DNA from: Alphaproteobacteria bacterium | GTDB lineage: Bacteria; Pseudomonadota; Alphaproteobacteria; UBA9219 | NCBI GenBank assembly: GCA_034002905.1 | Contig: JAVEZQ010000002.1 | Coordinates: forward strand, 31,348 to 95,347 | Length of the DNA: 64,000 bases | Reading direction: 5' to 3' | In this document: positions 10,282-59,320 of the stretch, one piece after another | Numbering within the stretch: position 1 is the stretch's first letter | How the letters are laid out: each line of letters opens with the position of its first letter | Notes under the pieces: model-generated | Told to the model about the DNA's origin: nothing | Databases searched by the model: none | Seen by the model: only the letters and a program-made list of their open reading frames with translations | Program-made: the position numbers and the translations under genes

Positions 10282-13200
10282 TTAATTTATCTTGATATCA
10301 ACGCGATCCATATCGCCGCTGGGGACATTAGCACCCATGGGACGGACATCAACACGGCTGGTCGCCACGCCCTTCATCGCTAGATAATCACGAACAGACA
10401 GAGCACGGTTCAACGAAATGCGGCGCGCCTGACGCGGAGAAATATCCCCGCCGGTGTCGGAATAAGCGATGAGCGTAATCCGTGCCTTGGGATTAGCCTT
10501 CAAGATCGCGGCAAGTTTTGCAAGGCTGTCGAGGGAATCCTCGTCAACTTTCTCAATACCACGATCAAAGCTGACGGTGGCAAGATCCGGCTCCAGCACA
10601 AGCTGTGAACCCGGAACCGTCACACCGCTATCATCAACGATTGGGTCCTCAAGGCCATCCAGCGGCCTCGAAGCGTTTGCTTGTTTGACAGAGGGTGGCT
10701 TGAGCGACGAAACCTCGCCGCCGATGTCTGCCGGAGCATCCGGCACAACCGGAGTCGATAGGATATCTTCGGCTGGCTCGATCTCTTCCTTCGTCACCTT
10801 AGCCTTCGGCTTGCTGTCCTTTTTAGACTTGCTCTGTTTCGCAGCAGCCTCTTTCACAGGCTTGGACGGCTTGACCTGAGGCATGGCCCCGCGTTCAAGC
10901 GGTGGCAAAGACGAAGCGGACAACTGCGGCGTCACCAACGAACCAGACGACGGCTTGGCCGGAGCAAACGGTGCTGTAACAGGCGCTTTCATCACAGGGT
11001 CACGTGGTGCCGCCGAAGGTACAGGCTGTTGCCAAGATGGCGTCGAAGAAGAAGGAAGCGGCTGGGGCATCGAAGTGCTTCCACCGACGGGGGCTACGCA
11101 GCTCACCGCACCACCGCCATTTGTACCGGAACAACTCCACGTCCACGGACCACGACCACTCACCGCACTGGCGATACCCGACGAACAAAGACCGGATTTA
11201 GGCGCCTCTATAGCCATGGCGCCGTGCGCCCCGCCACAGCGGCCCACAACAGGCGGCGGCGGCATAAGTGGGGCCGTACAGCTGACTGTCATACCGCCAT
11301 TTTCGCCGATACAGGCCCAATTCCACGGCCCGTCACCACTAACTTCCGTGGGTGTGCCCGCAGAACAGAACCCAGCGCGCGGACGCGAGACAAAGGCCAC
11401 GCCATTGGACGAACCGCATACACCGTTGACGAGCGGCCCCGGAGGCGGTGGCGCCTTGGACACGACTTTAGAGGCCGAGCAGGTGCTTGCGATGCCGCCA
11501 TTCATACCTGAACAGGTCCATGTCCACGGGCCCTCGCCATAGACGGCGCTTGGCATGCCGCTGTCGCACAGATTGGTGGTGGGGCCAGCCGTCAGAACAG
11601 CATTCGCCGAAGAGCCGCAGGTTCCATCCACACGCGTCTGCGCCTGTGAGGTTGCCGAGCAGCTCACACTATTTCCGCCGCCCGAACCAACACAGCTCCA
11701 CAACCATGGGCCCTGTCCACTTACAGTGGTGGCGTTTCCGGCTTGGCAAAGGTCTTCAACTGGCTGCGCCGTCAGGATGGCGCCATTTGCGCGACCGCAG
11801 ATTGCATCCACAAGCTTTTGGGCTTCGCATTTGACCATGACCTTCTTGTCACCGCAGGTCCAGCTCCATGGCCCCTCGCCTTCGACTGCTCCAGCCTCTC
11901 CTGACTTACAAAGGTTATCAAGGGGCTTGGATTTATAGCTGCCTCCAGCCGCAATACCGCATTCGGCCGAGGCCATATTCTGAGGCGCAGAGGACAGCGC
12001 TGCACCATTGCTGCCTTTAGCCGCAGACATATCGCTATCTACCTTGGGCGCACTGCATGAAGCCTTGTCGCCACCAAAGACGCCTTCACACGACCATGTC
12101 CATTTGTCACCTACGAGGATGGCTTTGCCGGGGGTACCCGTATCACAAAGATCATAGATTGGCTCTTCGGCAGAAGGTTCTTTGGTCGCCTTGCCACACG
12201 CACCATCTTTCTTACTTAAAGTCTCGCAAGAAACCTGATGCCCCGCATCGTCAGAGCAACTCCACGTCCAAGGACCGGAGCCCGATACATCGCTTGCTGT
12301 GCCGGTTGCGCAAAGGCCGGCTGATGGTTTTGATAGAACCAGCGTATCCGTCGCCTTGCCGCAAGATACTGTATTGGCAATGGATTCTTTTGTTCCAACC
12401 GAAGCCGTACAGCTTTCGGTCATGCCGCCCCTTTCACCGCCGCAAGTCCAGTTCCATGGCCCTGTTCCCGTGACACGTGAAGGACGACCCGTCTTGCAAA
12501 GCCCGACCGTCGGCGCTTTAAGGTACTGGTTGCCATGAGCAGCACCACATTGTCCGTCAACAAGCGTGAGAGCCTGACAGGCAACACTGGCACCGCCGTT
12601 TTCTCCCTCGCATGTCCAACTCCACGGCCCGCTTCCTGTTACCTTGGTAGACGATCCGACCGCGCACAATCCTTCTTCAGGTGCCGAACGGGCGCCGTTG
12701 ACGCTTGCCTTGCCGCAAACGGCATCGACCTTGCGCATCGCGGAGCAGGTTGCCGCCTCACCGCCATAAAGGCCGGAGCATGTCCAGTTCCACGGGCCCT
12801 CGCCAGATACCGCACTGGCATACCCCGCATTGCAGAGATCGCTCATCGGCATCGTATCAAAACCACGCTTGTCCGCACGTCCACATTCGCCATTAGTTTT
12901 GCGCTGAGCCGTACAGGCAGCCGGAGCCCCACCATTCAATCCGCTGCAAGCCCATGTCCAAGGACCAGCACCGTTCACACGGCTCGGCGCACCCTTTTCA
13001 CACAAATCGGTGACAGGCGGGGTTTCTGTTCCCTGACCTGCGGCCGCACCGCACTTACCATCTTCAATCTGGATTTCAGTTTGCCCCGACGCTTTGGCGG
13101 AATCGATATTAGCTTTTTGCTTTTCATCTTCCTGTGTGACTGGCGCGGCACAGCTAATGCTCATACCACCATTGATCCCTTCACAGGTCCAACGCCATGG

Positions 13201-14574
13201 CCCTGTACCAGTCAGGGCCGAAGCCCGGCCCTTCGTACACAAATCAGCCGAAGGGGCTACAGAAACGGCAAGGCCATTTGCCACACCACACGAGGCATCG
13301 ACAGGGTTCGTGCTTGCTTCGATTGACACGGGCGCAACTTCAGCAACGGCTGGAACGGATGATGCTGCTTTTACCGCAGCGTGATCTTCAAGAGCTGCCG
13401 TTGGCGGAGCCGTTAAATCCTTCATCGCCGTATCCGATGCAGCTTTCGAAACGGGCGCATAGATATTCGCACAACTATTATTCAGCCAAATATCACGCTT
13501 AGCTCCAGAGGGGCATTCAATGCGCGTTTCCCCGACGACCTGTCCGCGATAGTCAACGGGATAGCCGATGTCCTTGCAATCCTTTGTCCATTTGGTGACG
13601 CTTGGCACACATTCGGACGACTGGGAATCCAGAACGGGGGACGCCGCCTCTGGGGTGCTTTCGCGTGAAGGGGAGGATGCAGCACCAGCTGGTGCAGACT
13701 CAGCGGTTTTGGCTTCGGCTTCATCTTCAACCGAACTGCCAAAAACACTCTCGAAAGGCTTGGCCAAACGATCAAAGAAACCAGTTTCTTCCTCTTCCGT
13801 CTTTTTGGGCTGTCCGTCCAGATCAGCTTCATACAGAGGAACAGGCGGAACCGTCAGGTCCGTAGCCTTGTCCACACCCGTATACCCAGTTCCCTTGGCC
13901 TTTGCCATTTCAGGAGGAAAAACGATATCATCTTTATGAACTTTTACCGACGTTGCTCCGGCTTTGTCTGGAGAAACCCACGCTTTGGGTTCTTGGCCGC
14001 TGACATAGTTGCCGTCATCCTCTGCCGTCGCCGTCACAGACAAAGACTGGACGGAATCGTCGGCTTTGCCAACGGAGGCAGCCGTTCCTTCGGCGTCATC
14101 TTTGGTTACCATCATGCCACTGGCGGGAACATCGGTATTTTGTCCGGCCCGACGCAGGATGCTCTTCATCCCCTGCATGAGCATATCAGCCGTAGAGCTT
14201 GTATTTTTAGCATCTATTGCGGGCGGGTTTGTCGTTTCCTCTACCAGCTCACCCTTTCCACCAAGAAGCGGAGCCTTAAGCCCGCCGACCGACTTTTGAG
14301 GCAAAGGATGTTGGCTGGTGCTTTGCACCTTTTTCTTTTCGTTGTCTTGGTGACGCGGCAGCTTCAAATCGCCTGCCTTGAGCGGACGGTTCCAGATTAC
14401 ACCTTGTGGAAAGGTGCGCTCATCGGGCACAGACTCCGTTTGCGGAACGCCATAAACCTCGACAGACGAAGTCGAAGCCGTTGCAGAGAAGCTCGGAGTC
14501 GGATGACAAGCGAGCAAAACCGCAACCAGTCCGCAGAAAGAAAAGATAAAGTGAGAACGTTTAAACACAGACAT
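10282..14574 (-). CDS. giant (1430 aa) putative lipoprotein: ~430-aa N-terminal region, 12 tandem ~55-aa four-Cys repeats, Pro/Lys-rich linker, C-terminal OmpA-like peptidoglycan-binding domain
   Basis: One uninterrupted 4293-nt ORF. The N-terminus MSVFKRSHFIFSFCGLVAVLLAC has a signal peptide and an LLAC lipobox. Repeat consensus is CG.A.G......P...LC..G..S.V.G.GPW.W.C.G.NGG...SC.A. The C-terminus ITLIAYSDTGGDISPRQARRISLNRALSVRDYLAMKGVATSRVDVRPMGANVP...DRVDIKI is OmpA_C-like. Confidence 0.75.
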   Translation of the reverse strand: MSVFKRSHFIFSFCGLVAVLLACHPTPSFSATASTSSVEVYGVPQTESVPDERTFPQGVIWNRPLKAGDLKLPRHQDNEKKKVQSTSQHPLPQKSVGGLKAPLLGGKGELVEETTNPPAIDAKNTSSTADMLMQGMKSILRRAGQNTDVPASGMMVTKDDAEGTAASVGKADDSVQSLSVTATAEDDGNYVSGQEPKAWVSPDKAGATSVKVHKDDIVFPPEMAKAKGTGYTGVDKATDLTVPPVPLYEADLDGQPKKTEEEETGFFDRLAKPFESVFGSSVEDEAEAKTAESAPAGAASSPSRESTPEAASPVLDSQSSECVPSVTKWTKDCKDIGYPVDYRGQVVGETRIECPSGAKRDIWLNNSCANIYAPVSKAASDTAMKDLTAPPTAALEDHAAVKAASSVPAVAEVAPVSIEASTNPVDASCGVANGLAVSVAPSADLCTKGRASALTGTGPWRWTCEGINGGMSISCAAPVTQEDEKQKANIDSAKASGQTEIQIEDGKCGAAAGQGTETPPVTDLCEKGAPSRVNGAGPWTWACSGLNGGAPAACTAQRKTNGECGRADKRGFDTMPMSDLCNAGYASAVSGEGPWNWTCSGLYGGEAATCSAMRKVDAVCGKASVNGARSAPEEGLCAVGSSTKVTGSGPWSWTCEGENGGASVACQALTLVDGQCGAAHGNQYLKAPTVGLCKTGRPSRVTGTGPWNWTCGGERGGMTESCTASVGTKESIANTVSCGKATDTLVLSKPSAGLCATGTASDVSGSGPWTWSCSDDAGHQVSCETLSKKDGACGKATKEPSAEEPIYDLCDTGTPGKAILVGDKWTWSCEGVFGGDKASCSAPKVDSDMSAAKGSNGAALSSAPQNMASAECGIAAGGSYKSKPLDNLCKSGEAGAVEGEGPWSWTCGDKKVMVKCEAQKLVDAICGRANGAILTAQPVEDLCQAGNATTVSGQGPWLWSCVGSGGGNSVSCSATSQAQTRVDGTCGSSANAVLTAGPTTNLCDSGMPSAVYGEGPWTWTCSGMNGGIASTCSASKVVSKAPPPPGPLVNGVCGSSNGVAFVSRPRAGFCSAGTPTEVSGDGPWNWACIGENGGMTVSCTAPLMPPPPVVGRCGGAHGAMAIEAPKSGLCSSGIASAVSGRGPWTWSCSGTNGGGAVSCVAPVGGSTSMPQPLPSSSTPSWQQPVPSAAPRDPVMKAPVTAPFAPAKPSSGSLVTPQLSASSLPPLERGAMPQVKPSKPVKEAAAKQSKSKKDSKPKAKVTKEEIEPAEDILSTPVVPDAPADIGGEVSSLKPPSVKQANASRPLDGLEDPIVDDSGVTVPGSQLVLEPDLATVSFDRGIEKVDEDSLDSLAKLAAILKANPKARITLIAYSDTGGDISPRQARRISLNRALSVRDYLAMKGVATSRVDVRPMGANVPSGDMDRVDIKIN
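11090..13291 (-). repeat. intragenic array of 12 diverged tandem coding repeats (~150–240 nt each) encoding the four-Cys GPW.W.C modules
   Basis: Coordinates were derived by counting residues of the 12 repeat units (734 aa) and the 268-aa C-terminal tail. The many long antisense ORFs on the plus strand in this interval come from the GC-rich repetitive sequence. Confidence 0.65.
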
Positions 14575-16316: not shown

Positions 16317-16868
16317 TCAATCCGGATCCCAGATTTCCTGCAAGGACGGATACGCCTGGATCAGGAAATCAGTGACCTTATCGATGGGGCGATACACGCC
16401 AATCCACGGGATAAGCTCTTCCGTAATAATCAGTTTTTCAACATCTTCATCCGTTATGTGGATACGATCCCAATACAGATAATAGAAGTTCTCTTCCCCT
16501 TTGACCAAGACGGCCATAATCGTCTTAGGGAATGCGGGATCATCAAGCTGAACAAGCAAATAATTCTGATCGTTATGCGTCTTTTTCATCCACGCAAAGC
16601 CGATGTCGTGATGAAAGAGCTCCTCACTATCGTTATGCATAACGATATATTCCGGCTCTCCCGGATTCTTTCGATAGGGATTATCCTGTATCTTCGTCCG
16701 ACACTTAAAGTTAAGCGTCGAAATCTGGCCGACATAAATGCCATCGATCAGTTCGAACACACCAATACGACGCATAAAGCGGCAGCGCGAGGCTTCCTCG
16801 TGCGATATCTTCTTTAAAGCTCGATTTTCTTTAACGTTGAGAAAATCAGCAGCAGCGATCAATCCCAT
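16317..16868 (-). CDS. hypothetical protein (~183 aa), AT-richer than its neighbours, no recognisable domain
   Basis: The ORF track gives 16317..16949. The ATG at 16868 (MGLIAAADFLNV...) avoids the hydrophobic read-through N-terminus. No motif recognised. Confidence 0.4.
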   Translation of the reverse strand: MGLIAAADFLNVKENRALKKISHEEASRCRFMRRIGVFELIDGIYVGQISTLNFKCRTKIQDNPYRKNPGEPEYIVMHNDSEELFHHDIGFAWMKKTHNDQNYLLVQLDDPAFPKTIMAVLVKGEENFYYLYWDRIHITDEDVEKLIITEELIPWIGVYRPIDKVTDFLIQAYPSLQEIWDPD

Positions 16869-17372
16869 AACACACCCCCAGTTAAGAGGGGAGATTAACT
16901 CCCAATTCCTTGCCAAAGACAGCAAGAGGTGCCATAGGCCGAGCGCCAAAAAAAGTCATAGGTTCTTGTCGGAGCTGAAGCACTTCGTACCCAGTCACGA
17001 TTCACACGTGTGAGTCATCCGTACCGGCAACCGGCCCTATTTTCTTTGCCACCAACCAAAGCCCCTTTCCAAAACACACACGGAAAGGTACCCTTGCTGT
17101 TATACCACATACTCCTGCTCCCCCATGACAGGGAAACCGAAGAGGCAAAGCGTCGTTACATAAACCAGTGGGGAACGTACTAGGTGGTAAGCCACTACAT
17201 CCTTGGGCCAGTGGTACGTGCGCTTTCGAGGGCAACATGACCTATAGCCCCCCAAGATGCAATAACTATTTTACAATTCTGAATATTTTCATATCCTATT
17301 GTGACACACCTGCACCTTGCGGCGAAAAACGCGCGGACCTGCGGAGGATTAACCTTAACACAAAGGAAACCC

Positions 17373-26308: not shown

Positions 26309-27625
26309 GTGCCAAAGCGGGGCCATATGTTAGAGATTACACAGAAAGAAATTACGGAAACGGATCGAGCGGCTCAGTTTGCACGTAATGCCAGAGACAG
26401 AACTACAAACACCAAACAGAGTCGCTTTTATTGCAACACTTCTCCGGCCATACGAGGCCTGATTGATGACGTTATCACCGCCGGTGAAGCCGCTGCCACA
26501 CTGACCTTGTTGGCAAGCCGTACACTCAAGCTAATCAAAACAACCTCCTTTGCGCCCCATCCTGTTGACGATGCTTCAAAATTCAGCAACGTATCAACAA
26601 ACGTCAAAGCCCGAAATCAGATACTTGATACGATGTTAACGGAGGCCACAACGCCTGATACGCAATCCAGTTGCGAACGGGAGCTTTCTGCCAACAAAAA
26701 TATGATGCTCAAATCCATCTCAAGTGTCAGCGCGATAGCAAAGGGCATTTCACGTCGCATACCTTCCTATTGCGAAAAAGACAGGGGTGATTTGATCTTT
26801 AATGACACCTACTATCTTGGACAAGCTAATGACAATCTTGCTATATCAATGCTTAGTTTAATAAATGCGGTTATCAAACATATTCCACAGGAACAGAGCT
26901 CCCATCAAGAGCTCCAGAAAATCCGGCAAAAACTGCATTCCTATACACCCGTGAATAAACGAGAGGCCGGATTAGTAGACACGCAATATACCGACAGTGA
27001 AGAAAGCTTAGCACGGAAATTTGATGCAAGCTTCGCACGCTATCGTATAGCGATGATGGAATATGCCAGCAGACAACAAGATCCTGCCATTGAATCAAAA
27101 CTAAATGATCTAGACCAAGCGATTAAATTATACAGTGCCCAAGCCAAACATATGGCACAAGGACGGGATATTCTCAGCAAGGGCGTTCAGCTACGCATAT
27201 CTAATCAATCTTATAAATCATATGTTCGAGACAACGGATCACATAAGCCTATCTCGACCCATTTTATAGATGTTCGCACAGGCTCCGCTCAGTTTTGTAA
27301 CAAGACATCTCAGGATCTCTTTATACAGGAAAAAAACGAGCGACATGCGATTTACCTGACCCATAATACAACCGCCACACAAGTGCTCATCCATTGCTTT
27401 GACTTGGCAGCCATAGGCCTAACGCGCAACGAACCTCAAGAAATTAGCTTGGCGGCAAAAACCTTGCGACACCACGTCGAAAATTACACGATTGCAGCGC
27501 TTGGATATCACGGTATGAAACTGTTGGAAACCAACCTGCCAACAGTGGAAAAGTTGAATTTCAGAACCAATCGTGCACAAGCCGGAGCCCGCATCAGACC
27601 GCACAAGACGCCTCGCCTTTCCTAG
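26309..27625 (+). CDS. hypothetical protein (438 aa), AT-richer than flanking genes, no recognisable domain, no signal peptide
   Basis: A long ORF inserted between the SLT-domain gene and rnhB, with an alternative start at 26327. It is Ser/Thr/Asn/Gln-rich. I did not recognise any catalytic motif. Confidence 0.5.
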   Translation: MPKRGHMLEITQKEITETDRAAQFARNARDRTTNTKQSRFYCNTSPAIRGLIDDVITAGEAAATLTLLASRTLKLIKTTSFAPHPVDDASKFSNVSTNVKARNQILDTMLTEATTPDTQSSCERELSANKNMMLKSISSVSAIAKGISRRIPSYCEKDRGDLIFNDTYYLGQANDNLAISMLSLINAVIKHIPQEQSSHQELQKIRQKLHSYTPVNKREAGLVDTQYTDSEESLARKFDASFARYRIAMMEYASRQQDPAIESKLNDLDQAIKLYSAQAKHMAQGRDILSKGVQLRISNQSYKSYVRDNGSHKPISTHFIDVRTGSAQFCNKTSQDLFIQEKNERHAIYLTHNTTATQVLIHCFDLAAIGLTRNEPQEISLAAKTLRHHVENYTIAALGYHGMKLLETNLPTVEKLNFRTNRAQAGARIRPHKTPRLS

Positions 27626-29572: not shown

Positions 29573-30259
29573 ATGAATAGACATCTCAAGAAGTTGCTTC
29601 ATATTGACCCGATAAAACTAAACCTGCTCATCATATTAATGATCATCTGGACAGGCTATTTCGCCTGGAAGGTGGCGTGGCCATTCACGTGGTTATCAAT
29701 TCCCATTCTTCTTTGTTATGGCTACATCATCTTGCGCCTTGCCTATGAGCAGATTTTCAACAAGGGGCATGCACCGACAATGGCAACGGGTTACGCCGCG
29801 CGACACAAGATATCGGAGATACTGGCAAAAGATGCCGCACGGAATCCCAAGACGCCCTATAACATTCTTGATCTTGGCTCAGGGCGCGGTGAACTAACTC
29901 GTCGTTTAGCCCTTGATATTCCCAACGCTGTCGTTGTCGGCATTGAAAAGGAGTACTTTCCCTTTCACGAGTCAACTTGGGTTCAACGGCTCTTGGGTCC
30001 CCAAAACCTATTTTATAAACGCAGCGATTTCTGGGATTATGACTGTTCAGGCTGTGATGCTGTGATCCTGTACCTTATGCCCGCTATCTCCGAACGGCTT
30101 GGGGAAAAACTCGCAAAAGAGCTCAAGCACGGCGCCTTGATTATCTCACATGACTTTCCCCTTCATGGCAAATGGGAACCTATTGAAATATACAAGCTCC
30201 ACGCACCATTCAAGGATACGCTGTACGTCTACAGGAAAGAACTGCCCTTGAACCAATAA
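29573..30259 (+). CDS. membrane-anchored class I SAM-dependent methyltransferase-like protein
   Basis: Two N-terminal TM helices, then motif I ILDLGSGRGELT and a post-I acidic motif (VVGIEKE). AT-richer than ccrM. Substrate unknown. Confidence 0.5.
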   Translation: MNRHLKKLLHIDPIKLNLLIILMIIWTGYFAWKVAWPFTWLSIPILLCYGYIILRLAYEQIFNKGHAPTMATGYAARHKISEILAKDAARNPKTPYNILDLGSGRGELTRRLALDIPNAVVVGIEKEYFPFHESTWVQRLLGPQNLFYKRSDFWDYDCSGCDAVILYLMPAISERLGEKLAKELKHGALIISHDFPLHGKWEPIEIYKLHAPFKDTLYVYRKELPLNQ

Positions 30260-30266
30260 GTTCGTG

Positions 30267-30692
30267 TCATCCCCTGATGAGCGGACGATTGTGATATGTT
30301 TTTTTGCGTCCGCGAGGTTGAGGTACTGAAGCGATTTGGAGCCGAACTTTCGAGATTCCATCTTCGCCCAAGCCAAGAAGCTGGCCACGCGATTGGAAAT
30401 GATCCGATCGAACTCTCCCTTTATCATCTCTCCACGACAAAGTGATCAGCTTTCCATTGCGCGCAAGACTATCAAGCGTATTGTAAAAAGCATATGAAAA
30501 AGTACTGCCTGTCCAAAATCCGTTTTGATCGATAATCTTGGCCATTCGTTTTCCATACTGTCCCTTGACAGATATATAGGTGGTGTTATCCGAAATCGCG
30601 ATATCAAATGTTGGTGTCTTTTTAGGATTAGCTCCTAAAACACACATGATTTGCTTCATCACCAAAGTCAGTTTGTGCTGTAAAGGATGCAT
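30267..30692 (-). CDS. hypothetical protein (141 aa), convergent with the methyltransferase-like gene
   Basis: An ORF with no recognised domain. A second overlapping ORF (30146..30427) in another frame hints at a possible frameshift or decay. Confidence 0.3.
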   Translation of the reverse strand: MHPLQHKLTLVMKQIMCVLGANPKKTPTFDIAISDNTTYISVKGQYGKRMAKIIDQNGFWTGSTFSYAFYNTLDSLARNGKLITLSWRDDKGRVRSDHFQSRGQLLGLGEDGISKVRLQIASVPQPRGRKKTYHNRPLIRG

Positions 30693-30728
30693 TATTCTCC
30701 CCGCTTATTCGATCGCTAGAAACTCGAT

Positions 30729-31817
<1,089 letters not shown>

Positions 31818-31848
31818 TCACCCTTCTCGCAAAGGGCACCGAGAGCCA

Positions 31849-32094
31849 TTACTCGGTAACGACAGAAACAAACTTGCGCTTCTTCACTTCGCGGAAGGCA
31901 ACCATGCCCTCAACCTTGGCGAACAACGTGTGATCCTTGCCCATACCGACATTCTCACCGGCGTGGAACTTTGTGCCACGTTGGCGAACGATGATCGCGC
32001 CAGCCTTGGCTTTGCCATTGACTTTGACGCCAAGACGACGACCGGCGGAGTCGCGACCGTTACGTGATGAGCCGCCTGCTTTTTTATGTGCCAT
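31849..32094 (-). CDS. rpmA: 50S ribosomal protein L27
   Basis: [24 protein letters not shown]... is canonical L27. 81 aa. Confidence 0.95.
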
Positions 32095-32126
32095 TGACTT
32101 TCTCCTTCAACGTGCGAAGCGTGTGC

Positions 32127-32441
32127 TTACTTCGCTTTGATCTCTGTAATCTTCAGCACCGTAAAGCACTGACGATGGTTGTTACGACGACGATAATTCT
32201 GGCGACGCTTTTTCTTGAAAATGATCAGCTTGCGCGTGCGCTCTTGCGACACAACCTCAGCCAACACCTTGGCACCAGCGATAAAGGGCGAGCCAACGGC
32301 CACTTTGCCATTGTCGCAAATCATCATCACATCATTCAGATCAACGGTCTTTCCAGCCTCAGCTTCGAGCTTTTCGACCTGAACCATATCACCTTGGGCA
32401 ACCTTATACTGCTTGCCGCCTGTCTTTACGACTGCGAACAT
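32127..32441 (-). CDS. rplU: 50S ribosomal protein L21
   Basis: [18 protein letters not shown]... is canonical L21. 104 aa. Confidence 0.95.
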
Positions 32442-32705
32442 CTTTGACCAGCCATTCTTCTTTTAAAGTTAAACACAATACACGGCCACGCCATAGACAG
32501 GCGCGCCGTGGAGAGGCGTTTTTGCCGGATTCTCCCTCTCTTGTCAAGCAAGTGATTTGCTTTTCATACAGTTTTAAAAGCTCCGAGGCCTTCTACAGGC
32601 ACTAAAACAATCAATTAGTTAACAGATAGACATAATCAAGGCTTGATTTAGATATATTTTCATAATTAGATATAAAACGATAAGATTTTGATCAACGGAG
32701 GCACC

Positions 32706-32942
32706 ATGACAAAAAATAAGGTTGAAGAAAAAATTCTTGGTCTAAACCTTACCCCGACAGAAACTAGGCTTTTAGCTACAGTGAATTGTCTGGGAATAGG
32801 CGGTCGAAAAAGCCTCTATGAAACAAATGTCCTTCCGATGACACCTCATACCAATGAGAGTAACGCTCCGCTAAAGCCATTAGTTCCCAAAAAGAAATAT
32901 TTTTACGATTCTGGTGCACCAACAACACCTTACATACATTAA
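32706..32942 (+). CDS. small hypothetical protein (78 aa) in an AT-rich islet
   Basis: The ATG at 32706 is preceded by ggaggcacc (strong RBS) after a very AT-rich upstream region. It ends 3 nt before the HExxH gene. No recognised domain. Confidence 0.35.
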   Translation: MTKNKVEEKILGLNLTPTETRLLATVNCLGIGGRKSLYETNVLPMTPHTNESNAPLKPLVPKKKYFYDSGAPTTPYIH

Positions 32943-32945
32943 GGC

Positions 32946-33896
32946 ATGGGCTGCGAGATCATCAGCACAAACGCAAGACGTGACAATACGCTCAGGCGAA
33001 CTTGCGCTGTTGTGTCTCGATATTTCCCTGAAATCGCGTCAAAAATTGGTGGCAACTTCCAACAGGTCGTTCAAAAAGAACCCTTTACGATCTATATTGT
33101 CGATACAACGAGGGTCAAACCGCCAAGCTATACTTATGACGATATGCCCAAGTTCGCCTCGATAGAAGGACTGAACGGGGTGAGAAAAGTTGCCCTCAGG
33201 CGCAACGACCTCGTTTATGCCCTAAGCGCCTATGCTCTTTCGACGAACGAAATGGTGCTTTACCTCAATCCAAAGCATCCAGACTATCACCGCCCTTATA
33301 TTATTCGACTCATTGCAGCCACTTTGGCGCATGAGATCCACCATAGCGCCTGCATGCTCAATAATGGTGAATGGTACGACAGAGACACCACGAAAAAAAA
33401 AGTGGCGGCCCCTTACGTCAAAGATGCTTATTGCACATCAATGATCAACACCCTCGCCTCCGAGGGTCTAGCCCAGATTTTCGAGAAAGAAATAACAGGC
33501 TATTTACCCTATTGCCCTTACAATATTACACCAACACTTTCAGCGCAGTTACCACATGTCTTTAACAAGAAATTTCTTTTAGATCGCTTTAACTGGAACA
33601 CATATACCAACTTTTTCTTTGGCATGGGAGAGCAAACGCCCGTCTCGGGGCTTGGTTATCAGATGGCAACGCTTCTCATGCATAATTATCTGTCCGACAC
33701 TGGCAAAACAGCCGCCCAATGCACTGGTACGCGAAGTAAAGACATCTATGACTGGCTTGAGGCGAGAAAGTTTGTGCTTAACGATATTGATGTTGTTTAC
33801 CGTCAGTCAGCGCGCCTCCTTACGCGAACAGACTACCTCAATCTCATCACAGCAAAAACACCCAAACCCGCCGAGGCCCCACTGTTCGGGGGATAG
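32946..33896 (+). CDS. hypothetical HExxH-motif protein (putative zinc metallopeptidase-like), 316 aa
   Basis: LIAATLAHEIHHSAC contains an HExxH motif in a hydrophobic helix context. The protein is Cys-rich (CTSM, YCPY). AT-richer than the core genome. It appears co-transcribed with the 78-aa ORF. Confidence 0.5.
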   Translation: MGCEIISTNARRDNTLRRTCAVVSRYFPEIASKIGGNFQQVVQKEPFTIYIVDTTRVKPPSYTYDDMPKFASIEGLNGVRKVALRRNDLVYALSAYALSTNEMVLYLNPKHPDYHRPYIIRLIAATLAHEIHHSACMLNNGEWYDRDTTKKKVAAPYVKDAYCTSMINTLASEGLAQIFEKEITGYLPYCPYNITPTLSAQLPHVFNKKFLLDRFNWNTYTNFFFGMGEQTPVSGLGYQMATLLMHNYLSDTGKTAAQCTGTRSKDIYDWLEARKFVLNDIDVVYRQSARLLTRTDYLNLITAKTPKPAEAPLFGG

Positions 33897-33908
33897 GGTT
33901 GGTTAGGA

Positions 33909-34508
33909 TTACAAAGCGCTAGTGCCGGGAATGATTTCCCTCTGTTTACGTGGAAAATAGAGGATGATGGCGATAAAGGTATCTATAAAAACGGCATAGA
34001 GGGGATAAGCCATTTCGGCAAAGCTCCAATCCTTGATTGCAAACAAGCCCAACACATAGCTGAGCCCACCAATGGCATAGGAAATCCGCGTTTCGCTTTC
34101 TGGATGAGAGATGGACTTCTTGATGGTCGGGATCGCGGCCATGATATCCGCCACTATCGCGAAAAAGATAGCCCAATTGGCATCTGCCGTCGCCCACCAC
34201 GCCAACAGCGCCGTAACAGACATAGCCCCGCACAACCAGTCAAATAGGGTGAGCTTCCACTGGGCCTGTTTTAACGTCAGCGCAAGGACAAAGCCAACCA
34301 TAGGACATAAAAAGGCGCTGAGCACGGGAATGTTTGTGAGAATAGCCCCTTCCGACCACGCCGCCACAAGCGCAATCCCGCTTTCAAAAGCCCATAGACC
34401 AGCCGTAATCTGATTGGGTTTTGTCGTACCCTTGAACATATCCCTGTAATAGGGAAGCGCAGCCGCGATACCCATCGCCAAACCAACAAAAGGAAGCCAT
34501 TCAAGCAT
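33909..34508 (-). CDS. hypothetical polytopic membrane protein (199 aa, ~6 TM)
   Basis: Hydrophobic throughout (LEWLPFVGLAMGIAAALPYY..., LAAWSEGAILTNIPVL...). No recognised family. Confidence 0.45.
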   Translation of the reverse strand: MLEWLPFVGLAMGIAAALPYYRDMFKGTTKPNQITAGLWAFESGIALVAAWSEGAILTNIPVLSAFLCPMVGFVLALTLKQAQWKLTLFDWLCGAMSVTALLAWWATADANWAIFFAIVADIMAAIPTIKKSISHPESETRISYAIGGLSYVLGLFAIKDWSFAEMAYPLYAVFIDTFIAIILYFPRKQREIIPGTSAL

Positions 34509-34716
34509 ATTCTATTATCCGCGTAATAAGTTTTCGGGCCAGAATTCTTACATTAAAATCATCTGTCATCCCCGCGAAAGCGCGGATCCATATAACGATT
34601 CAGAAAGAAGCAAGCGCTAAGTTTTTACCGACTGGCCACATAGACTCCCGCCTACGCGGGAGTGACATAGATTTCTTATTGTATAGTCATCCCCATCAAC
34701 CCGTCGTTTACGTTCA

Positions 34717-36396
34717 TTACCGCTCGATTGGCTTGTACTTAATCCGGTGAGGTTGATCAGCATCAGTTCCAAGGCGGCGATGGCGATCAATTTCGTAATC
34801 CTGATAATTACCTTCAAACCAGACAACTTGGCTGTCACCCTCAAAAGCAAGGATATGCGTCGCGATACGGTCAAGGAACCAGCGATCATGGCTGATTACT
34901 ACGATACAGCCGGGGAAATCCACCAGCGCATCTTCAAGTGCGCGCAGCGTTTCGATATCCAGATCGTTGCTCGGCTCGTCAAGAAGCAGGACATTCGCCC
35001 CAGACTTGAGCATCTTGGCCATATGGACGCGGTTACGCTCACCGCCTGACAGATCGCCGACTTTCTTTTGCTGATCCGGCCCCTTAAACCCGAAGGACGC
35101 GACATAGCCACGGCTGGCCACCGTGCGCTTGCCAAACTCAAGCATATCAAGCCCGTCGGAAATCTCTTCCCAGACAGTCTTGGTTGCGGCAAGGGAGTCA
35201 CGGCTTTGATCAACATAGCCAAGCTGAACCGTCTCGCCGACACGGATCGTGCCGCCATCTGGCTTCTCCACACCCGTAATCATTTTAAAGAGCGTCGATT
35301 TACCCGCGCCGTTCGCACCGATGATGCCAACGATACCACCCGGCGGTAGCTTAAAGGTCAGATCGTCAATCAACAAACGATCACCATATCCTTTTCGCAG
35401 ATGCTCGACCTCGACCACGACACTGCCAAGACGTGGCGGTGTGGGGATCAAGATTTGTGCTGTTTCTGGAGCCTTATCCGCATTTTTGGCCAACAAATCT
35501 TCATAAGCCGTAATACGCGCCTTGTTTTTGGCTTGGCGCGCCTTGGGCGCTGTGCGCACCCATTCAAGTTCGCGAGACAAAGTCCGCTGACGCGCCTTAT
35601 CATCACGCACTTCTTGTTCGAGGCGTTTTTGCTTTTGCTCAAGCCACGAAGAGTAATTCCCTTCATAGGGGATGCCATTTCCGCGATCGAGCTCCAAGAT
35701 CCAGCCCGTGACCTGATCAAGGAAGTAACGATCGTGGGTAACCAGAATGACGGCCCCCTTATATTCAACCAAATGGCGTTGAAGCCACGCAATGGATTCC
35801 GCGTCCAAATGGTTGGTTGGTTCGTCAAGAAGCAACAAATCAGGCTTTTGCATCAACAAACGACACAGGGCCACCCGACGCCGTTCACCGCCCGAAAGCT
35901 TGGTCACGTCGGCATCACCCGGCGGACAGCGCAAAGCATCCATCGCGATTTCAACACGGCGGCTGAGATCCCACGCATCGGCGGCATCTATTTTTTCCTG
36001 AAGTTCACCCTGCTCTTCAAGTAGCTTTTGCATCTCGTCGGGATCTTCGACCTCGCCCAGCTTCATGCTGAGTTCTTCAAAACGATCAACCAGAGCTTTG
36101 ATCTCGCCAAGGCCGGTCAAGATGTTTTGCTCGACAGTTAGAGCCGGATCAAGCTGAGGCTCCTGCTGCAAGTAACCAACCGTTGCGCCGTCCGCAACAA
36201 AAGCTTCACCGCTAAAATCCGTGTCCAGACCCGCCATGATTTTCATAAGCGTGGATTTACCCGCGCCATTAGGTCCCAGAATGCCAATCTTAGCATCAGG
36301 ATAAAAAGAGAGTGAAATATTGTTCAAGACCGTTTTCCCGTTGGTAAAGGTCTTGGTTACGCGATTCATCACGTAGATATATTGATAAGCAGCCAT
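34717..36396 (-). CDS. ettA: energy-dependent translational throttle protein EttA (ABC-F ATPase)
   Basis: 559 aa. Two ABC cassettes (GPNGAGKST / [20 protein letters not shown] / [11 protein letters not shown]). The N-terminus [17 protein letters not shown] parallels E. coli MAQFVYTMHRVGK. Confidence 0.9.
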
Positions 36397-44557: not shown

Positions 44558-45208
44558 TTGTTATCTGTTTTCGTCATGTGGATCGCAACAAAATCTACTT
44601 TTTGCACTGCAATAACCGTTTCCCTTTTATGCCTGAGCACTCCAGCTTTGGCTTCGGAGCAGTCACAAACTGCGCCTGAGGGAAAGATTGCAGGCGTTCC
44701 TTATGTTCAAGATTCAGGTGTGCTCTCGATCAATGGCCGCGATGTCAATTTGTGGGGCATTGAGCGGCTGGCTCCCGATCAACAGTGCTGGCAAGCCGAA
44801 ATGGCATGGTGTTGCGGTGAATATGCCGCCATGGCCCTTAAGCACTTTGTGCAAGGCCGCATGGTAGAATGCGAGATCAAAGAGCCCGCAGCGGAAGGAC
44901 TTCCCGCCTTTGCCGTTTGTACACGCAATAAAGGTCAGCACAAAACGGACATCGCCGAACATCTCGTCTCCTTTGGCTGGGCTTTGGCTAAAAAAGATAT
45001 TGTCGACAACCCTTACGAAGAGTTCGAAGAAGACGCACGGGAAAACAAACGAGGCGCATGGTCAAGCCGTTTCCAAAGCGCGCAGGACTGGCGCGACGGC
45101 ATACAACGTTATATTAGTGAGTCGAATGATGACTCGGCTCAAACGCTAGAGCCACCGGCAGAAGAACCTGCTGACGTAGGAGCCGCCGCCGAAGTGGCGG
45201 AAGAGTAA
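44558..45208 (+). CDS. secreted thermonuclease-family (SNase-like) protein with acidic C-terminal tail
   Basis: A signal peptide (…LLCLSTPALA), then an SNase-fold pattern (GVPYVQDSGVLSINGRDVNLWGIERLAP...ALKHFVQGRMVECEIKEP...FAVC...EHLVSFGWALA...RENKRGAWS). Cys-rich (CWQAEMAWCCGEY). The catalytic residues were not checked. Confidence 0.5.
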   Translation: MLSVFVMWIATKSTFCTAITVSLLCLSTPALASEQSQTAPEGKIAGVPYVQDSGVLSINGRDVNLWGIERLAPDQQCWQAEMAWCCGEYAAMALKHFVQGRMVECEIKEPAAEGLPAFAVCTRNKGQHKTDIAEHLVSFGWALAKKDIVDNPYEEFEEDARENKRGAWSSRFQSAQDWRDGIQRYISESNDDSAQTLEPPAEEPADVGAAAEVAEE

Positions 45209-57343: not shown

Positions 57344-57565
57344 TGCCCCTATCTCCTTTGAAAGGTTGGTGTCGTAATGCGCGGGACGATAGCCTTTTTG
57401 CCGCACAGACTCAATGGCAATCCGATTGATACCAAAATTAACTATTAGCACTCTTTCAAATACTGATTTCACCGATTATTTATTTACATCTTGTCGTTTT
57501 CAGAGACTCAACTTAGCATTCGCGTGGCTTCATTAGATTCTCACTTTAAGAAGAAAGGCGGGGTA

Positions 57566-58414
57566 ATGAATATGCAGATTGGCAAGGCTTACACCCTTGC
57601 CTCCAAGATGACTGAATCCTTCCCCTATGACCGGGTCCTCATCTCACTCGGCGCCTGTATCCACACTCAATCGGACTTGTTTGAACAAACAAACAAAAAA
57701 TATAGAAGTGCCAGAACAACAGTAACGGAAACCGTCAATATCATGCAACGGGTGGATACTGATGCCTTTATTAATTCGATCCCGAACCCCTTTTCTTCTA
57801 AACAGCTCTCCCTTTTGCGCTACAATCCAAACCGCAAAGAAAACAACAAGAATCCTGAAACCAGCTGGCTGCAGGCTCTAGAACAAACGCTCAACCAATC
57901 CCATGCGCATGTCGCAGTTGGTCTTTTTGAAGCGCTCGAATGGTTCCAAGAACAGAAGATCACCCCGTATATCCTTTCGCATCGGCCTAAAGAAGTTATC
58001 AATTTATACCTGACGAAAATCTCCGGTTCTGATCGTGACAGCCTTTTAGGACTGATTCCAAGTGACAGGCATATCACATGTGATCTGGTTGAACCCTCTC
58101 GCCGTAACGTCGTGCTCAATGGCGCTCGAGTCCATGCTGATATCTACCCTGATCTTCAACGGATAAAGGGGTTCAAACCGGAAACAACGCTTGTCATCGA
58201 AAATCATCTCAAATCCACGCTGGATGCAACTGAGAATGGTTATACAACAATAGGTTACACAGATGATCGCTGTGATGTTGTTTGTGCAGACGGCATTCGC
58301 TTTGCCGGAGCTGTAACCACTTTTACCATGTGGGACGAGGTTCAGGATGCCGTCAGAAGCAGCCTTTACAGCCAAAAGACTGGCCCCGCCCCCCAAAACG
58401 CCGCCCCCTGTTAA
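57566..58414 (+). CDS. hypothetical protein (~282 aa) in an AT-richer islet between ppdK and rpsF
   Basis: ORF track 57491..58414. The ATG at 57566 (MNMQIGKAYTL) is preceded by aaggcgggg. No recognised domain and no signal peptide. Confidence 0.45.
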   Translation: MNMQIGKAYTLASKMTESFPYDRVLISLGACIHTQSDLFEQTNKKYRSARTTVTETVNIMQRVDTDAFINSIPNPFSSKQLSLLRYNPNRKENNKNPETSWLQALEQTLNQSHAHVAVGLFEALEWFQEQKITPYILSHRPKEVINLYLTKISGSDRDSLLGLIPSDRHITCDLVEPSRRNVVLNGARVHADIYPDLQRIKGFKPETTLVIENHLKSTLDATENGYTTIGYTDDRCDVVCADGIRFAGAVTTFTMWDEVQDAVRSSLYSQKTGPAPQNAAPC

Positions 58415-58593
58415 GGGGTTTAGACCTGAAATTATTCGGCTTTAGGCTTGCATTGCCTGCTTGAGGGCGCTATAGACCCCCTCATACCTCCTTGCTGGAC
58501 GTATAGGACGTTCAGCTTGGTCAATGCGGCTGATGCTTTGGGGTGGGCCCAAACCAGCGGTTGACCGCCCAAATCCATAGGGAGTGTGGATCG

Positions 58594-58983
58594 ATGCCAT
58601 ACTATGAGTCTATCTTTATTGCGCGTCAGGATGTTCCTGCGACGCAAGTTGAAGCCCTCACCAAAACATTCAGCGAAATCGTGACGAACCACGGCGGCGC
58701 GGTCAAAAAGACCGAGCAATGGGGTCTGCGTACCTTGGCCTATCGTATTCGCAAGAACAAGAAGGGCCATTATGTCCTGATGAACCTCGACGCGCCGGCT
58801 GACGCCGTTGCGGAGATGGAGCGCAATATGCGCCTGAACGAAGACGTGCTTCGCTATTTGACCGTCAAGGTTGAAAAGCTGGAGGACGGTCCCTCGGTCA
58901 TGATGCGCCGTGACGAACGCGACAGCAACGAACGGGTCGCCCGCGGTCCTCGCGCACCTCGCAGCGCCGCCATTGAAGAATAA
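58594..58983 (+). CDS. rpsF: 30S ribosomal protein S6
   Basis: MPYYESIFIARQDV... is canonical S6 with an acidic C-terminal tail. GGAG lies 9 nt upstream. The ORF track opens at a GTG at 58543. Confidence 0.9.
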   Translation: MPYYESIFIARQDVPATQVEALTKTFSEIVTNHGGAVKKTEQWGLRTLAYRIRKNKKGHYVLMNLDAPADAVAEMERNMRLNEDVLRYLTVKVEKLEDGPSVMMRRDERDSNERVARGPRAPRSAAIEE

Positions 58984-59011
58984 CCCATTTTGATGATCAG
59001 GAGATAATCCC

Positions 59012-59320
59012 ATGAGCACTGAAAGAACACCAAGCAGCAAGCCAGCTTCCGGCGGCCGTCGTCCCTCAGGTGGGGGCGCCAGCGGGGGCGGTCATTTCTG
59101 GGGCCGTCGCAAGACCGATCCTTTTGAAGGGGCCGAAGGCATCAAGATCGATTACAAAGACGTCCGGACACTTGGCCGCTTTATTTCCGAGCGCGGCAAA
59201 ATCGTCCCTTCGCGCATCACGGCCGTTTCAGGCAAGAACCAGCGCAAGCTGGCGCAGGCGATCAAGGTCGCCCGCTATCTCGCCCTGTTGCCTTATGTCA
59301 ATGATCGCGCCGGCGCCTAA
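59012..59320 (+). CDS. rpsR: 30S ribosomal protein S18 (with Gly/Arg-rich N-terminal extension)
   Basis: …[53 protein letters not shown] is canonical S18. Confidence 0.9.

Follow-up and report, generated by a model that had tools for sequence, protein, structure and literature searches.

The DNA analyzed here, a window of 64,000 nucleotides (64 kb) from an Alphaproteobacteria bacterium (assembly GCA_034002905.1, contig JAVEZQ010000002.1), carries two closely spaced open reading frames (ORFs) beside rplU, the gene of ribosomal protein L21. The larger ORF, 316 codons long, encodes a very divergent new member of the known but uncharacterized family DUF2268, and it is preceded by a species-restricted orphan ORF of 78 codons. 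On balance we consider it fairly probable that both ORFs are read from one bicistronic transcript, that the small ORF is translated, and that ribosomes reinitiate behind it to yield a cytoplasmic DUF2268 zinc peptidase.

A previous sequence-only reading of the window had described the larger protein as not recognizable. This was wrong: the Pfam profile of DUF2268 (PF10026, 'predicted Zn-dependent protease') matches it in two stretches with 38.6 bits, compared to a gathering cut-off of 23.6 (E 1.1e-9), and the precomputed annotation of a 99%-identical protein (P0001) names PF10026 as well. The related family DUF5700 gave a weaker match below its threshold. An exhaustive phmmer search among 1.84 billion representatives at E up to 1e-3 delivered ten proteins, the query itself and nine others, and all nine of these remote matches are PF10026 proteins. 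Furthermore, hhalign aligned the three members of the sub-branch described below (alignment A2) with seven canonical members of the family (A5) at 99.9%, with an E of 1.4e-33 over 177 columns. Word-indexed protein searches with the 316-residue protein recovered its own cluster only, and sequence and profile searches of the PDB gave nothing significant, M48 peptidases heading the profile list with a non-significant best E of 0.032. From the perspective of sequence comparison, membership in DUF2268 is well supported. The earlier proposal of a putative zinc hydrolase fits this assignment, since the protein possesses the conserved HExHH motif together with the downstream glutamate of EGLA. All motifs named at that time (LAHEIHHSAC, YCPY and CTSM) are indeed present. 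The description as Cys-rich, in contrast, does not stand: six of the 316 residues are cysteines (1.9%), and none of them is conserved in the family alignment.

In the family alignment of ten sequences (A1), the residues H129, E130, H132, H133, E173, G174, L175, A176, F179, G226, Y238 and L249 are invariant. By analogy, H129, H133 and E173 are presumed to be the zinc ligands and E130 the catalytic base or water activator. A check for a third zinc ligand had been suggested before; it points to E173, located on the helix following the HExxH helix, as the likely candidate. The AlphaFold2 (AF2) model of the protein reached a predicted template modelling score (pTM) of 0.69, and most of its core (residues 90-280) has a predicted local distance difference test score (pLDDT) of 70-92. 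HExHH and E173 are found on successive helices of this model, which corresponds to the arrangement of gluzincins. The top PDB and viral structures found by Foldseek were all zincins, and all matches were weak: 4fgm (probability 0.98), anthrax lethal factor, BepA, thermolysin-like and SprT-like proteins.

As stated previously, neither protein has a signal peptide, and hydropathy analysis gave no transmembrane segment either: the maximal 19-residue Kyte-Doolittle values are 1.13 for the 316-residue and 0.64 for the 78-residue protein. A secreted or exported effector, delivered via Sec or Tat, was considered for the larger protein and rejected, given its polar N-terminus MGCEIISTNARRDN and its maximal hydropathy, which provide neither a signal nor an anchor. 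Its MGC start resembles an N-myristoylation site. At position 6, the consensus for this modification calls for Ser, Thr, Ala, Gly, Cys or Asn, all of them small, while Ile is found here, and the start is not kept in the two other members of the sub-branch, so that this candidate was discarded as well. The sequence features taken together suggest a soluble, cytoplasmic protein, predicted to be a zinc metallopeptidase of the gluzincin type.

Within DUF2268 the protein belongs to a sub-branch of three known sequences, the other two being P0003 (274 residues) and P0004 (307 residues). These two alone have in common with it the Lys-rich insert between the ligand helices and a similar N-terminal region, which is longer in this fast-diverging sub-branch. 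No further member was found in protein, GTDB genome or JGI metagenome scans seeded with A2. The genome and metagenome scans delivered only canonical DUF2268 genes of 22-31% identity, and at none of the loci from the genome scan did a DUF2268 gene adjoin rplU or rpmA. A word-indexed search seeded with the alignment returned the query's own cluster and P0004 only.

P0003, the closest homologue, is encoded on a 1.8-kb contig of a distant relative (L005) on which rpmA and rplU lie on one strand and the DUF2268 gene is divergent from rplU, as in the window. The L21 proteins of both loci are 74% identical and L21/L27 74-75%, while the DUF2268 proteins share about 29%. The distance from rplU to the DUF2268 start codon is 254 nt in L005, compared to 264 nt from rplU to the start codon of the small ORF in the window; relative to L005, the window contains 240 additional nt after the leader and before the ATG of the protease gene. 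In the alignment, M1 of the 316-residue protein corresponds to the N-termini of P0003 and P0004. Since L005 provides a positional orthologue beside rplU, the protease gene is, as judged by synteny, ancestral at this junction. An acquired islet was ruled out by this orthologue, by the G+C content at third codon positions (GC3) of the DUF2268 gene, which is 0.52 and inside the range of the genome, and by the lack of phage or plasmid matches for either protein. Only the 240-nt segment with the small ORF and the promoter region are both compositionally atypical and lineage-specific. Because L005 lacks the 240 nt and both other members of the sub-branch start at M1 of the larger ORF, the small ORF is, on sequence comparison, a lineage-specific addition and not a part of the ancestral protein.

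P0004 is encoded in a different context, flanked by genes for an autotransporter beta-domain protein and a lipocalin, on a Logan contig of 4131 nt from run SRR15237817 (L006). The same run also holds the species of the window (L063, with one single-nucleotide polymorphism (SNP)). P0004 may be a paralogue carried by a related strain, or it may stem from a different organism. Among canonical DUF2268 genes, conserved gene order was observed around eleven loci (L010, L011, L012, L014, L015, L020, L021, L027, L035, L043 and L044), which stem from metagenome-assembled genomes (MAGs) of Alphaproteobacteria and Rhodospirillales and from metagenome contigs. Two of them, L021 and L027, comprise two tandem DUF2268 copies each.

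The region in front of the protease gene differs strongly from its surroundings. The lowest G+C content of the window is reached at 32450-32950, and with a single exception, every 300-nt window below 40% G+C falls into this AT-rich region. Positions 32560-32945 contain 36.8% G+C, compared to a mean of 52.0% for the window (standard deviation 4.2%, 300-nt windows), which confirms the AT-rich islet described earlier; the part upstream of the small ORF (32550-32705) contains 32%. An alignment of the spacer with that of L005 revealed that GCCGTGGA..GCGTTTTTGCCGGATTC..CTCTTGTCAA is kept, while the remainder is not conserved. By analogy, the block at 32505-32547 is presumably the promoter of rplU-rpmA. 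With TTGACA, a spacer of 17 nt and CAAAAA, it resembles the Caulobacter-type, or alphaproteobacterial housekeeping, promoter consensus.

For the two-ORF unit itself, a candidate promoter (TTTAGA and TATAAA, 18 nt apart) can be read by eye in the AT-rich region. It was missed by our consensus scan, which accepts only -10 hexamers with T as the sixth base, and the scan counted no more promoters than were found in shuffled sequences. Both candidate hexamers overlap a 9-nt repeat, TTAGATATA, that was noticed before: two exact copies are present, while their spacing is 18 nt from start to start and not 20 nt as given then. Of the dinucleotide shuffles of the 264-nt spacer, 4% contain an exact 9-mer twice within 40 nt, so that the repeat is only marginally non-random. 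Near-matches of TTAGATATA showed no regulon-like enrichment in the window, and the repeat is not conserved in the L005 spacer. At best, it provides weak evidence for a possible operator.

The ribosome-binding sites of both ORFs differ considerably. The small ORF is preceded by a perfect GGAGG, the best Shine-Dalgarno match among the 42 gene starts listed in the window, so that the earlier mention of a strong ribosome-binding site holds. In contrast, the DUF2268 start codon has no usable Shine-Dalgarno sequence, as only AAGG is found at a distance of 1 nt. The small ORF's last sense codon is separated from the DUF2268 ATG by nothing but the TAA stop codon and GGC. As the stop codon is 3 nt from the ATG and a usable Shine-Dalgarno sequence is lacking, ribosomes probably reach the protease gene by termination and reinitiation. 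RNA folds around both start codons were no better than those of shuffled sequences, and this includes the local fold at the stop-start junction. An Rfam scan of positions 30000-36000 gave sub-threshold chance matches only, with neither a ribosomal protein leader nor a riboswitch among them, and the terminator scan, whose counts did not exceed those of shuffles, found no terminator 3' of the DUF2268 gene. With two ORFs 3 nt apart, an AT-rich upstream region and a strong ribosome-binding site, the locus does have the compact, seemingly self-promoted layout described before, and it resembles one operon. The following order of events could be envisioned: a promoter in the AT-rich spacer, with TTTAGA-18-TATAAA as candidate, would drive a short bicistronic transcript; ribosomes would load at GGAGG and translate the 78-codon ORF; they would then probably reinitiate at the ATG 3 nt downstream, in the manner of translational coupling, and synthesize the DUF2268 protein, which would act as a cytoplasmic zinc peptidase through the presumed ligands and base named above.

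The product of the small ORF has no relatives that we could find. Among 5.8 billion protein clusters there is no homologue beyond its own, 100%-identical cluster, and Pfam, NCBIfam, PADLOC, PHROGs and PDB contain no match. The ORF is found neither at the syntenic site in L005 nor upstream of the P0004 gene in L006, and a tblastn comparison with 55 other DUF2268 loci revealed nothing significant, the best hit (E 0.021) being located 3 kb off on the opposite strand. A helix-turn-helix of LuxR type, suggested by the peptide LTPTETRLL, was rejected, as Pfam gave no match for it at E up to 1. The single-sequence AF2 model of the small protein consists of one helix (residues 17-30) with the rest unstructured (pLDDT 60, pTM 0.24). 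Sequence and model point to a young, species-restricted and largely disordered peptide, with no evidence of a dedicated partnership. It should be noted that orphan status is common in this window: many of its ORFs are Pfam-less, and the lineage is poorly sampled.

Variation between strains adds a further aspect. Compared with the haplotype of the MAG GCA_009929575.1 (99.78% identical to the window), which originates from dairy-wastewater stabilization ponds (PRJNA508305; PMC8929167), the DUF2268 gene shows four non-synonymous changes (L16F, L122R, K151N and V153A) and one synonymous change. The eight neighboring genes combined show 3 non-synonymous and 25 synonymous changes, a significant difference (Fisher p = 0.004). 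All four replacements affect positions that are variable in the family, and two of them, K151N and V153A, lie in the Lys-rich insert. The small ORF has a single polymorphism, P47H, found in L064, which brings the pair of ORFs to five non-synonymous changes and one synonymous change, compared to 3 and 26 in neighboring genes. The sequences of a contig from run SRR25572339 and of the window are 100% identical over 6.8 kb. The pattern in the DUF2268 gene points to rapid change in variable parts of an intact protein rather than to decay.

Several points weigh against the proposed reading. In the AF2 model, 125 residues have a pLDDT below 50, and the fold matches are weak, the best reaching an E of 0.017 and a TM of 0.45. 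No functional study or structure of any DUF2268 member was found in the literature and structure resources that we searched, and for the family as a whole, peptidase activity is assumed. A ratio of non-synonymous to synonymous rates near 1 could also fit relaxed constraint on a dispensable gene, and it is based on five substitutions only. The comparative depth is thin, with a single positional orthologue and a handful of haplotypes less than 0.5% away from the window. The remaining points concern the small ORF, and they are at the same time arguments for the most serious alternative, namely that the 78-codon ORF is not a gene but a chance frame, located in the AT-rich 5' untranslated region of a DUF2268 transcript that is monocistronic. 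When the 504-nt spacer between rplU and the DUF2268 gene was shuffled, 4.2% of the shuffles contained an ORF with an ATG start and a length of 78 codons or more. The GC3 of the small ORF is only 0.29, while 0.45-0.68 is found in the genes of the window, and its codon score falls at the 75th-90th percentile of spurious out-of-frame ORFs of 60-110 residues that overlap genes. It has no homologue, is absent from the syntenic locus, lacks a confident fold, and its sole polymorphism is non-synonymous. Against the chance frame stand the perfect GGAGG 4 nt before its ATG, a motif that occurs just 22 times on the plus strand in 64 kb, and the end of the ORF exactly 3 nt before an ATG that has no Shine-Dalgarno sequence of its own. 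Its codon log-likelihood is +0.13 per codon in the frame in question and clearly negative in the other five, and with G+C contents of.47,.41 and.29 at the three codon positions it follows the order GC1 > GC2 > GC3 of coding sequence. We conclude that the small ORF is probably translated, judging from these sequence features, and regard the chance frame as unlikely, though as an explanation that deserves to be kept in mind.

In addition, it had been suggested that both ORFs form a toxin/inhibitor or effector/chaperone pair, in which the small protein would restrain or assist a toxic or exported metalloprotease, as its inhibitor, antitoxin, immunity protein or chaperone. The gap of 3 nt and the common upstream region would suit such a pair, as would the strain differences, which in both genes mostly alter the protein, a pattern often seen in conflict genes; moreover, intrinsically disordered antitoxins exist. 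Yet a test of co-occurrence, set beforehand, gave no support: the small ORF is missing from the two other loci of the sub-branch and from all 55 DUF2268 loci, and no neighbor family recurs around 46 canonical DUF2268 genes (the most frequent one is found at 3 of the 46). The absence of matches for the small protein in PADLOC and the other databases listed above also speaks against a pair, as does the absence of a secretion signal. Furthermore, the locus is not mobile, without phage or plasmid matches and with an ancestral position beside rplU, and the L005 orthologue exists without a partner, so that the protease is not intrinsically toxic there. Thus, this scenario appears improbable to us. 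A narrower version, in which the 78-residue peptide is a recently born, species-specific partner that acts on the DUF2268 protein in trans, as inhibitor or as pro-segment, has a similarly slim chance. We retain it because the layout suggests co-transcription, because non-synonymous and synonymous changes stand at 5:1, and because the lineage is too sparsely sampled for co-occurrence to be decisive.

Finally, the two ORFs share one reading frame with an offset of exactly 240 nt (80 codons) from ATG to ATG, and the small ORF's ATG matches the position of the L005 DUF2268 ATG relative to rplU, which might indicate one interrupted gene, either a former 396-residue protein that a nonsense mutation cut in two, or a readthrough product with an extended N-terminus; this is very improbable, as a shared frame has a prior of one in three, P0003 and P0004 start at M1 of the larger ORF and not within the small one, no DUF2268 locus encodes anything like the 78-residue segment, the TAA is found in every assembly recovered (those spanning the junction are identical to the window there), and bacterial readthrough is poor at TAA when a G follows.

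The coordinates of the features discussed are summarized in Table 1.

Table 1. Features of the rplU-DUF2268 locus (positions refer to the 64-kb window).
Feature	Position	Strand	Basis and remarks
rplU (ribosomal protein L21)	32127..32441	-	Pfam Ribosomal_L21p; divergent neighbor that anchors the conserved synteny
Conserved block, read as rplU promoter	32505..32547	-	Pairwise alignment with L005; TTGACA (32547-32542), 17-nt spacer, CAAAAA (GCAAAAAC)
AT-rich region 5' of both ORFs, with their presumed promoter	32550..32705	+	Composition; 32% G+C
Candidate promoter	TTTAGA 32647-32652; TATAAA 32671-32676	+	18-nt spacing; read by eye, inference only
Two exact copies of TTAGATATA	32648-32656 and 32666-32674	+	Overlap the candidate -35 and -10 elements
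Shine-Dalgarno sequence GGAGG	32697..32701	+	4 nt 5' of the ATG of the small ORF
78-codon orphan ORF	32706..32942	+	ORF list
Stop-start junction TAA GGC ATG	32940..32948	+	Read from the sequence
316-codon DUF2268 ORF	32946..33896	+	ORF list; Pfam PF10026
HEIHH (H129, E130, H132, H133)	33330..33344	+	Invariant in A1; predicted helix 119-139
Lys-rich insert, residues 140-162	33363..33431	+	Between HExxH helix and Glu helix; A1 and A2; pLDDT <50
E173 of EGLA	33462..33464	+	Invariant in A1, A2 and A5; predicted helix 166-184
199-residue membrane-protein gene	33909..34508	-	Convergent with the DUF2268 gene

Besides the two ORFs, other features of the window deserve a mention. The gene convergent with the protease gene encodes a multi-pass membrane protein of 199 residues without a family match, as holin, PycTM and ECF-subunit profiles gave faint sub-threshold matches only. 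The stop codons of both genes are 12 nt apart with no terminator between them, and both strain differences in the membrane-protein gene are synonymous. A second patch of low G+C content (about 40%) is located between a methyltransferase-like gene and obgE and contains an ORF of 141 codons (30267-30692, minus strand), which has no counterpart in Pfam, NCBIfam, PADLOC or PHROGs. It differs between strains at two sites, both of them synonymous, and by its sequence it looks like a real, constrained orphan gene. ORFs of 200-440 residues without a Pfam match at E up to 1e-3 were found at 26309-27625, 44558-45208 and 57491-58414 on the plus strand and at 58432-59040 on the minus strand; the lineage appears to be poorly represented in family databases. 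In an ORF of 1430 codons (10282-14574, minus strand), a C-terminal OmpA-family domain is the only recognizable part, and the G+C content at second codon positions is high (0.58). A gene for a DUF736-family protein (16317-16949, minus strand) overlaps an alternative ORF on the opposite strand that has a poor codon score. Proteins with DUF736 are often encoded on integrative or conjugative elements of Alphaproteobacteria.

DUF2268 is widespread without a characterized member, and the practical value of our finding is modest; it has no bearing on a long-standing open question. Nevertheless, the sub-branch changes about 10 times faster than its neighbors at non-synonymous sites while all putative catalytic residues are kept, and it could therefore help to separate catalytic positions from those that determine specificity. 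The in-frame segment of 240 nt with its strong ribosome-binding site offers a small and clean case of an ORF that may be an orphan or have arisen de novo. If the idea of a young partner were true, one would be looking at a pair of protease and modulator caught at its origin, which would provide a genetic handle on DUF2268.

Compared with known systems, the locus combines familiar traits in its own way. With translationally coupled leader-ORF pairs it shares the strong upstream Shine-Dalgarno sequence, the 3 nt between stop and start and the poor downstream Shine-Dalgarno sequence. However, 78 codons are long for a regulatory leader peptide, the RNA analyses revealed no attenuator-like structure, and coupling is suggested here by the layout only. 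A predicted protease gene beside rplU-rpmA, found here in two lineages, brings to mind Prp of the Firmicutes, a protease that processes L27 and whose gene is located between rplU and rpmA. Prp is a cysteine protease with no relationship to DUF2268, and its gene is part of the operon, whereas the DUF2268 gene is divergent from that operon, and a Prp-like role in L27 maturation was rejected, since L27 of this organism has no N-terminal extension to remove. Solved gluzincins, such as the M1/M61-like 4fgm, anthrax lethal factor, thermolysin-like M4 peptidases and M48 peptidases (BepA/3c37), have HExxH on one helix and the glutamate on the next as well; they differ by the lack of significant sequence similarity (best E 0.032), by TM values of at most 0.45 and by other domain architectures, and the 316-residue protein belongs to none of these families. 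Canonical DUF2268 proteins, in contrast, are its relatives at 22-26% identity. They comprise about 210-250 residues, whereas the protein described here has 316, with an additional Lys-rich insert of about 23 residues, the segment 54-92 and a C-terminal tail of 40 residues, and its gene stands behind an orphan ORF. What both have in common is AHExHH, EGLA..F..E, the F-G pair of the W/F-F-x-G motif and G-Y, together with the absence of a signal peptide and a stand-alone gene found in varied contexts.

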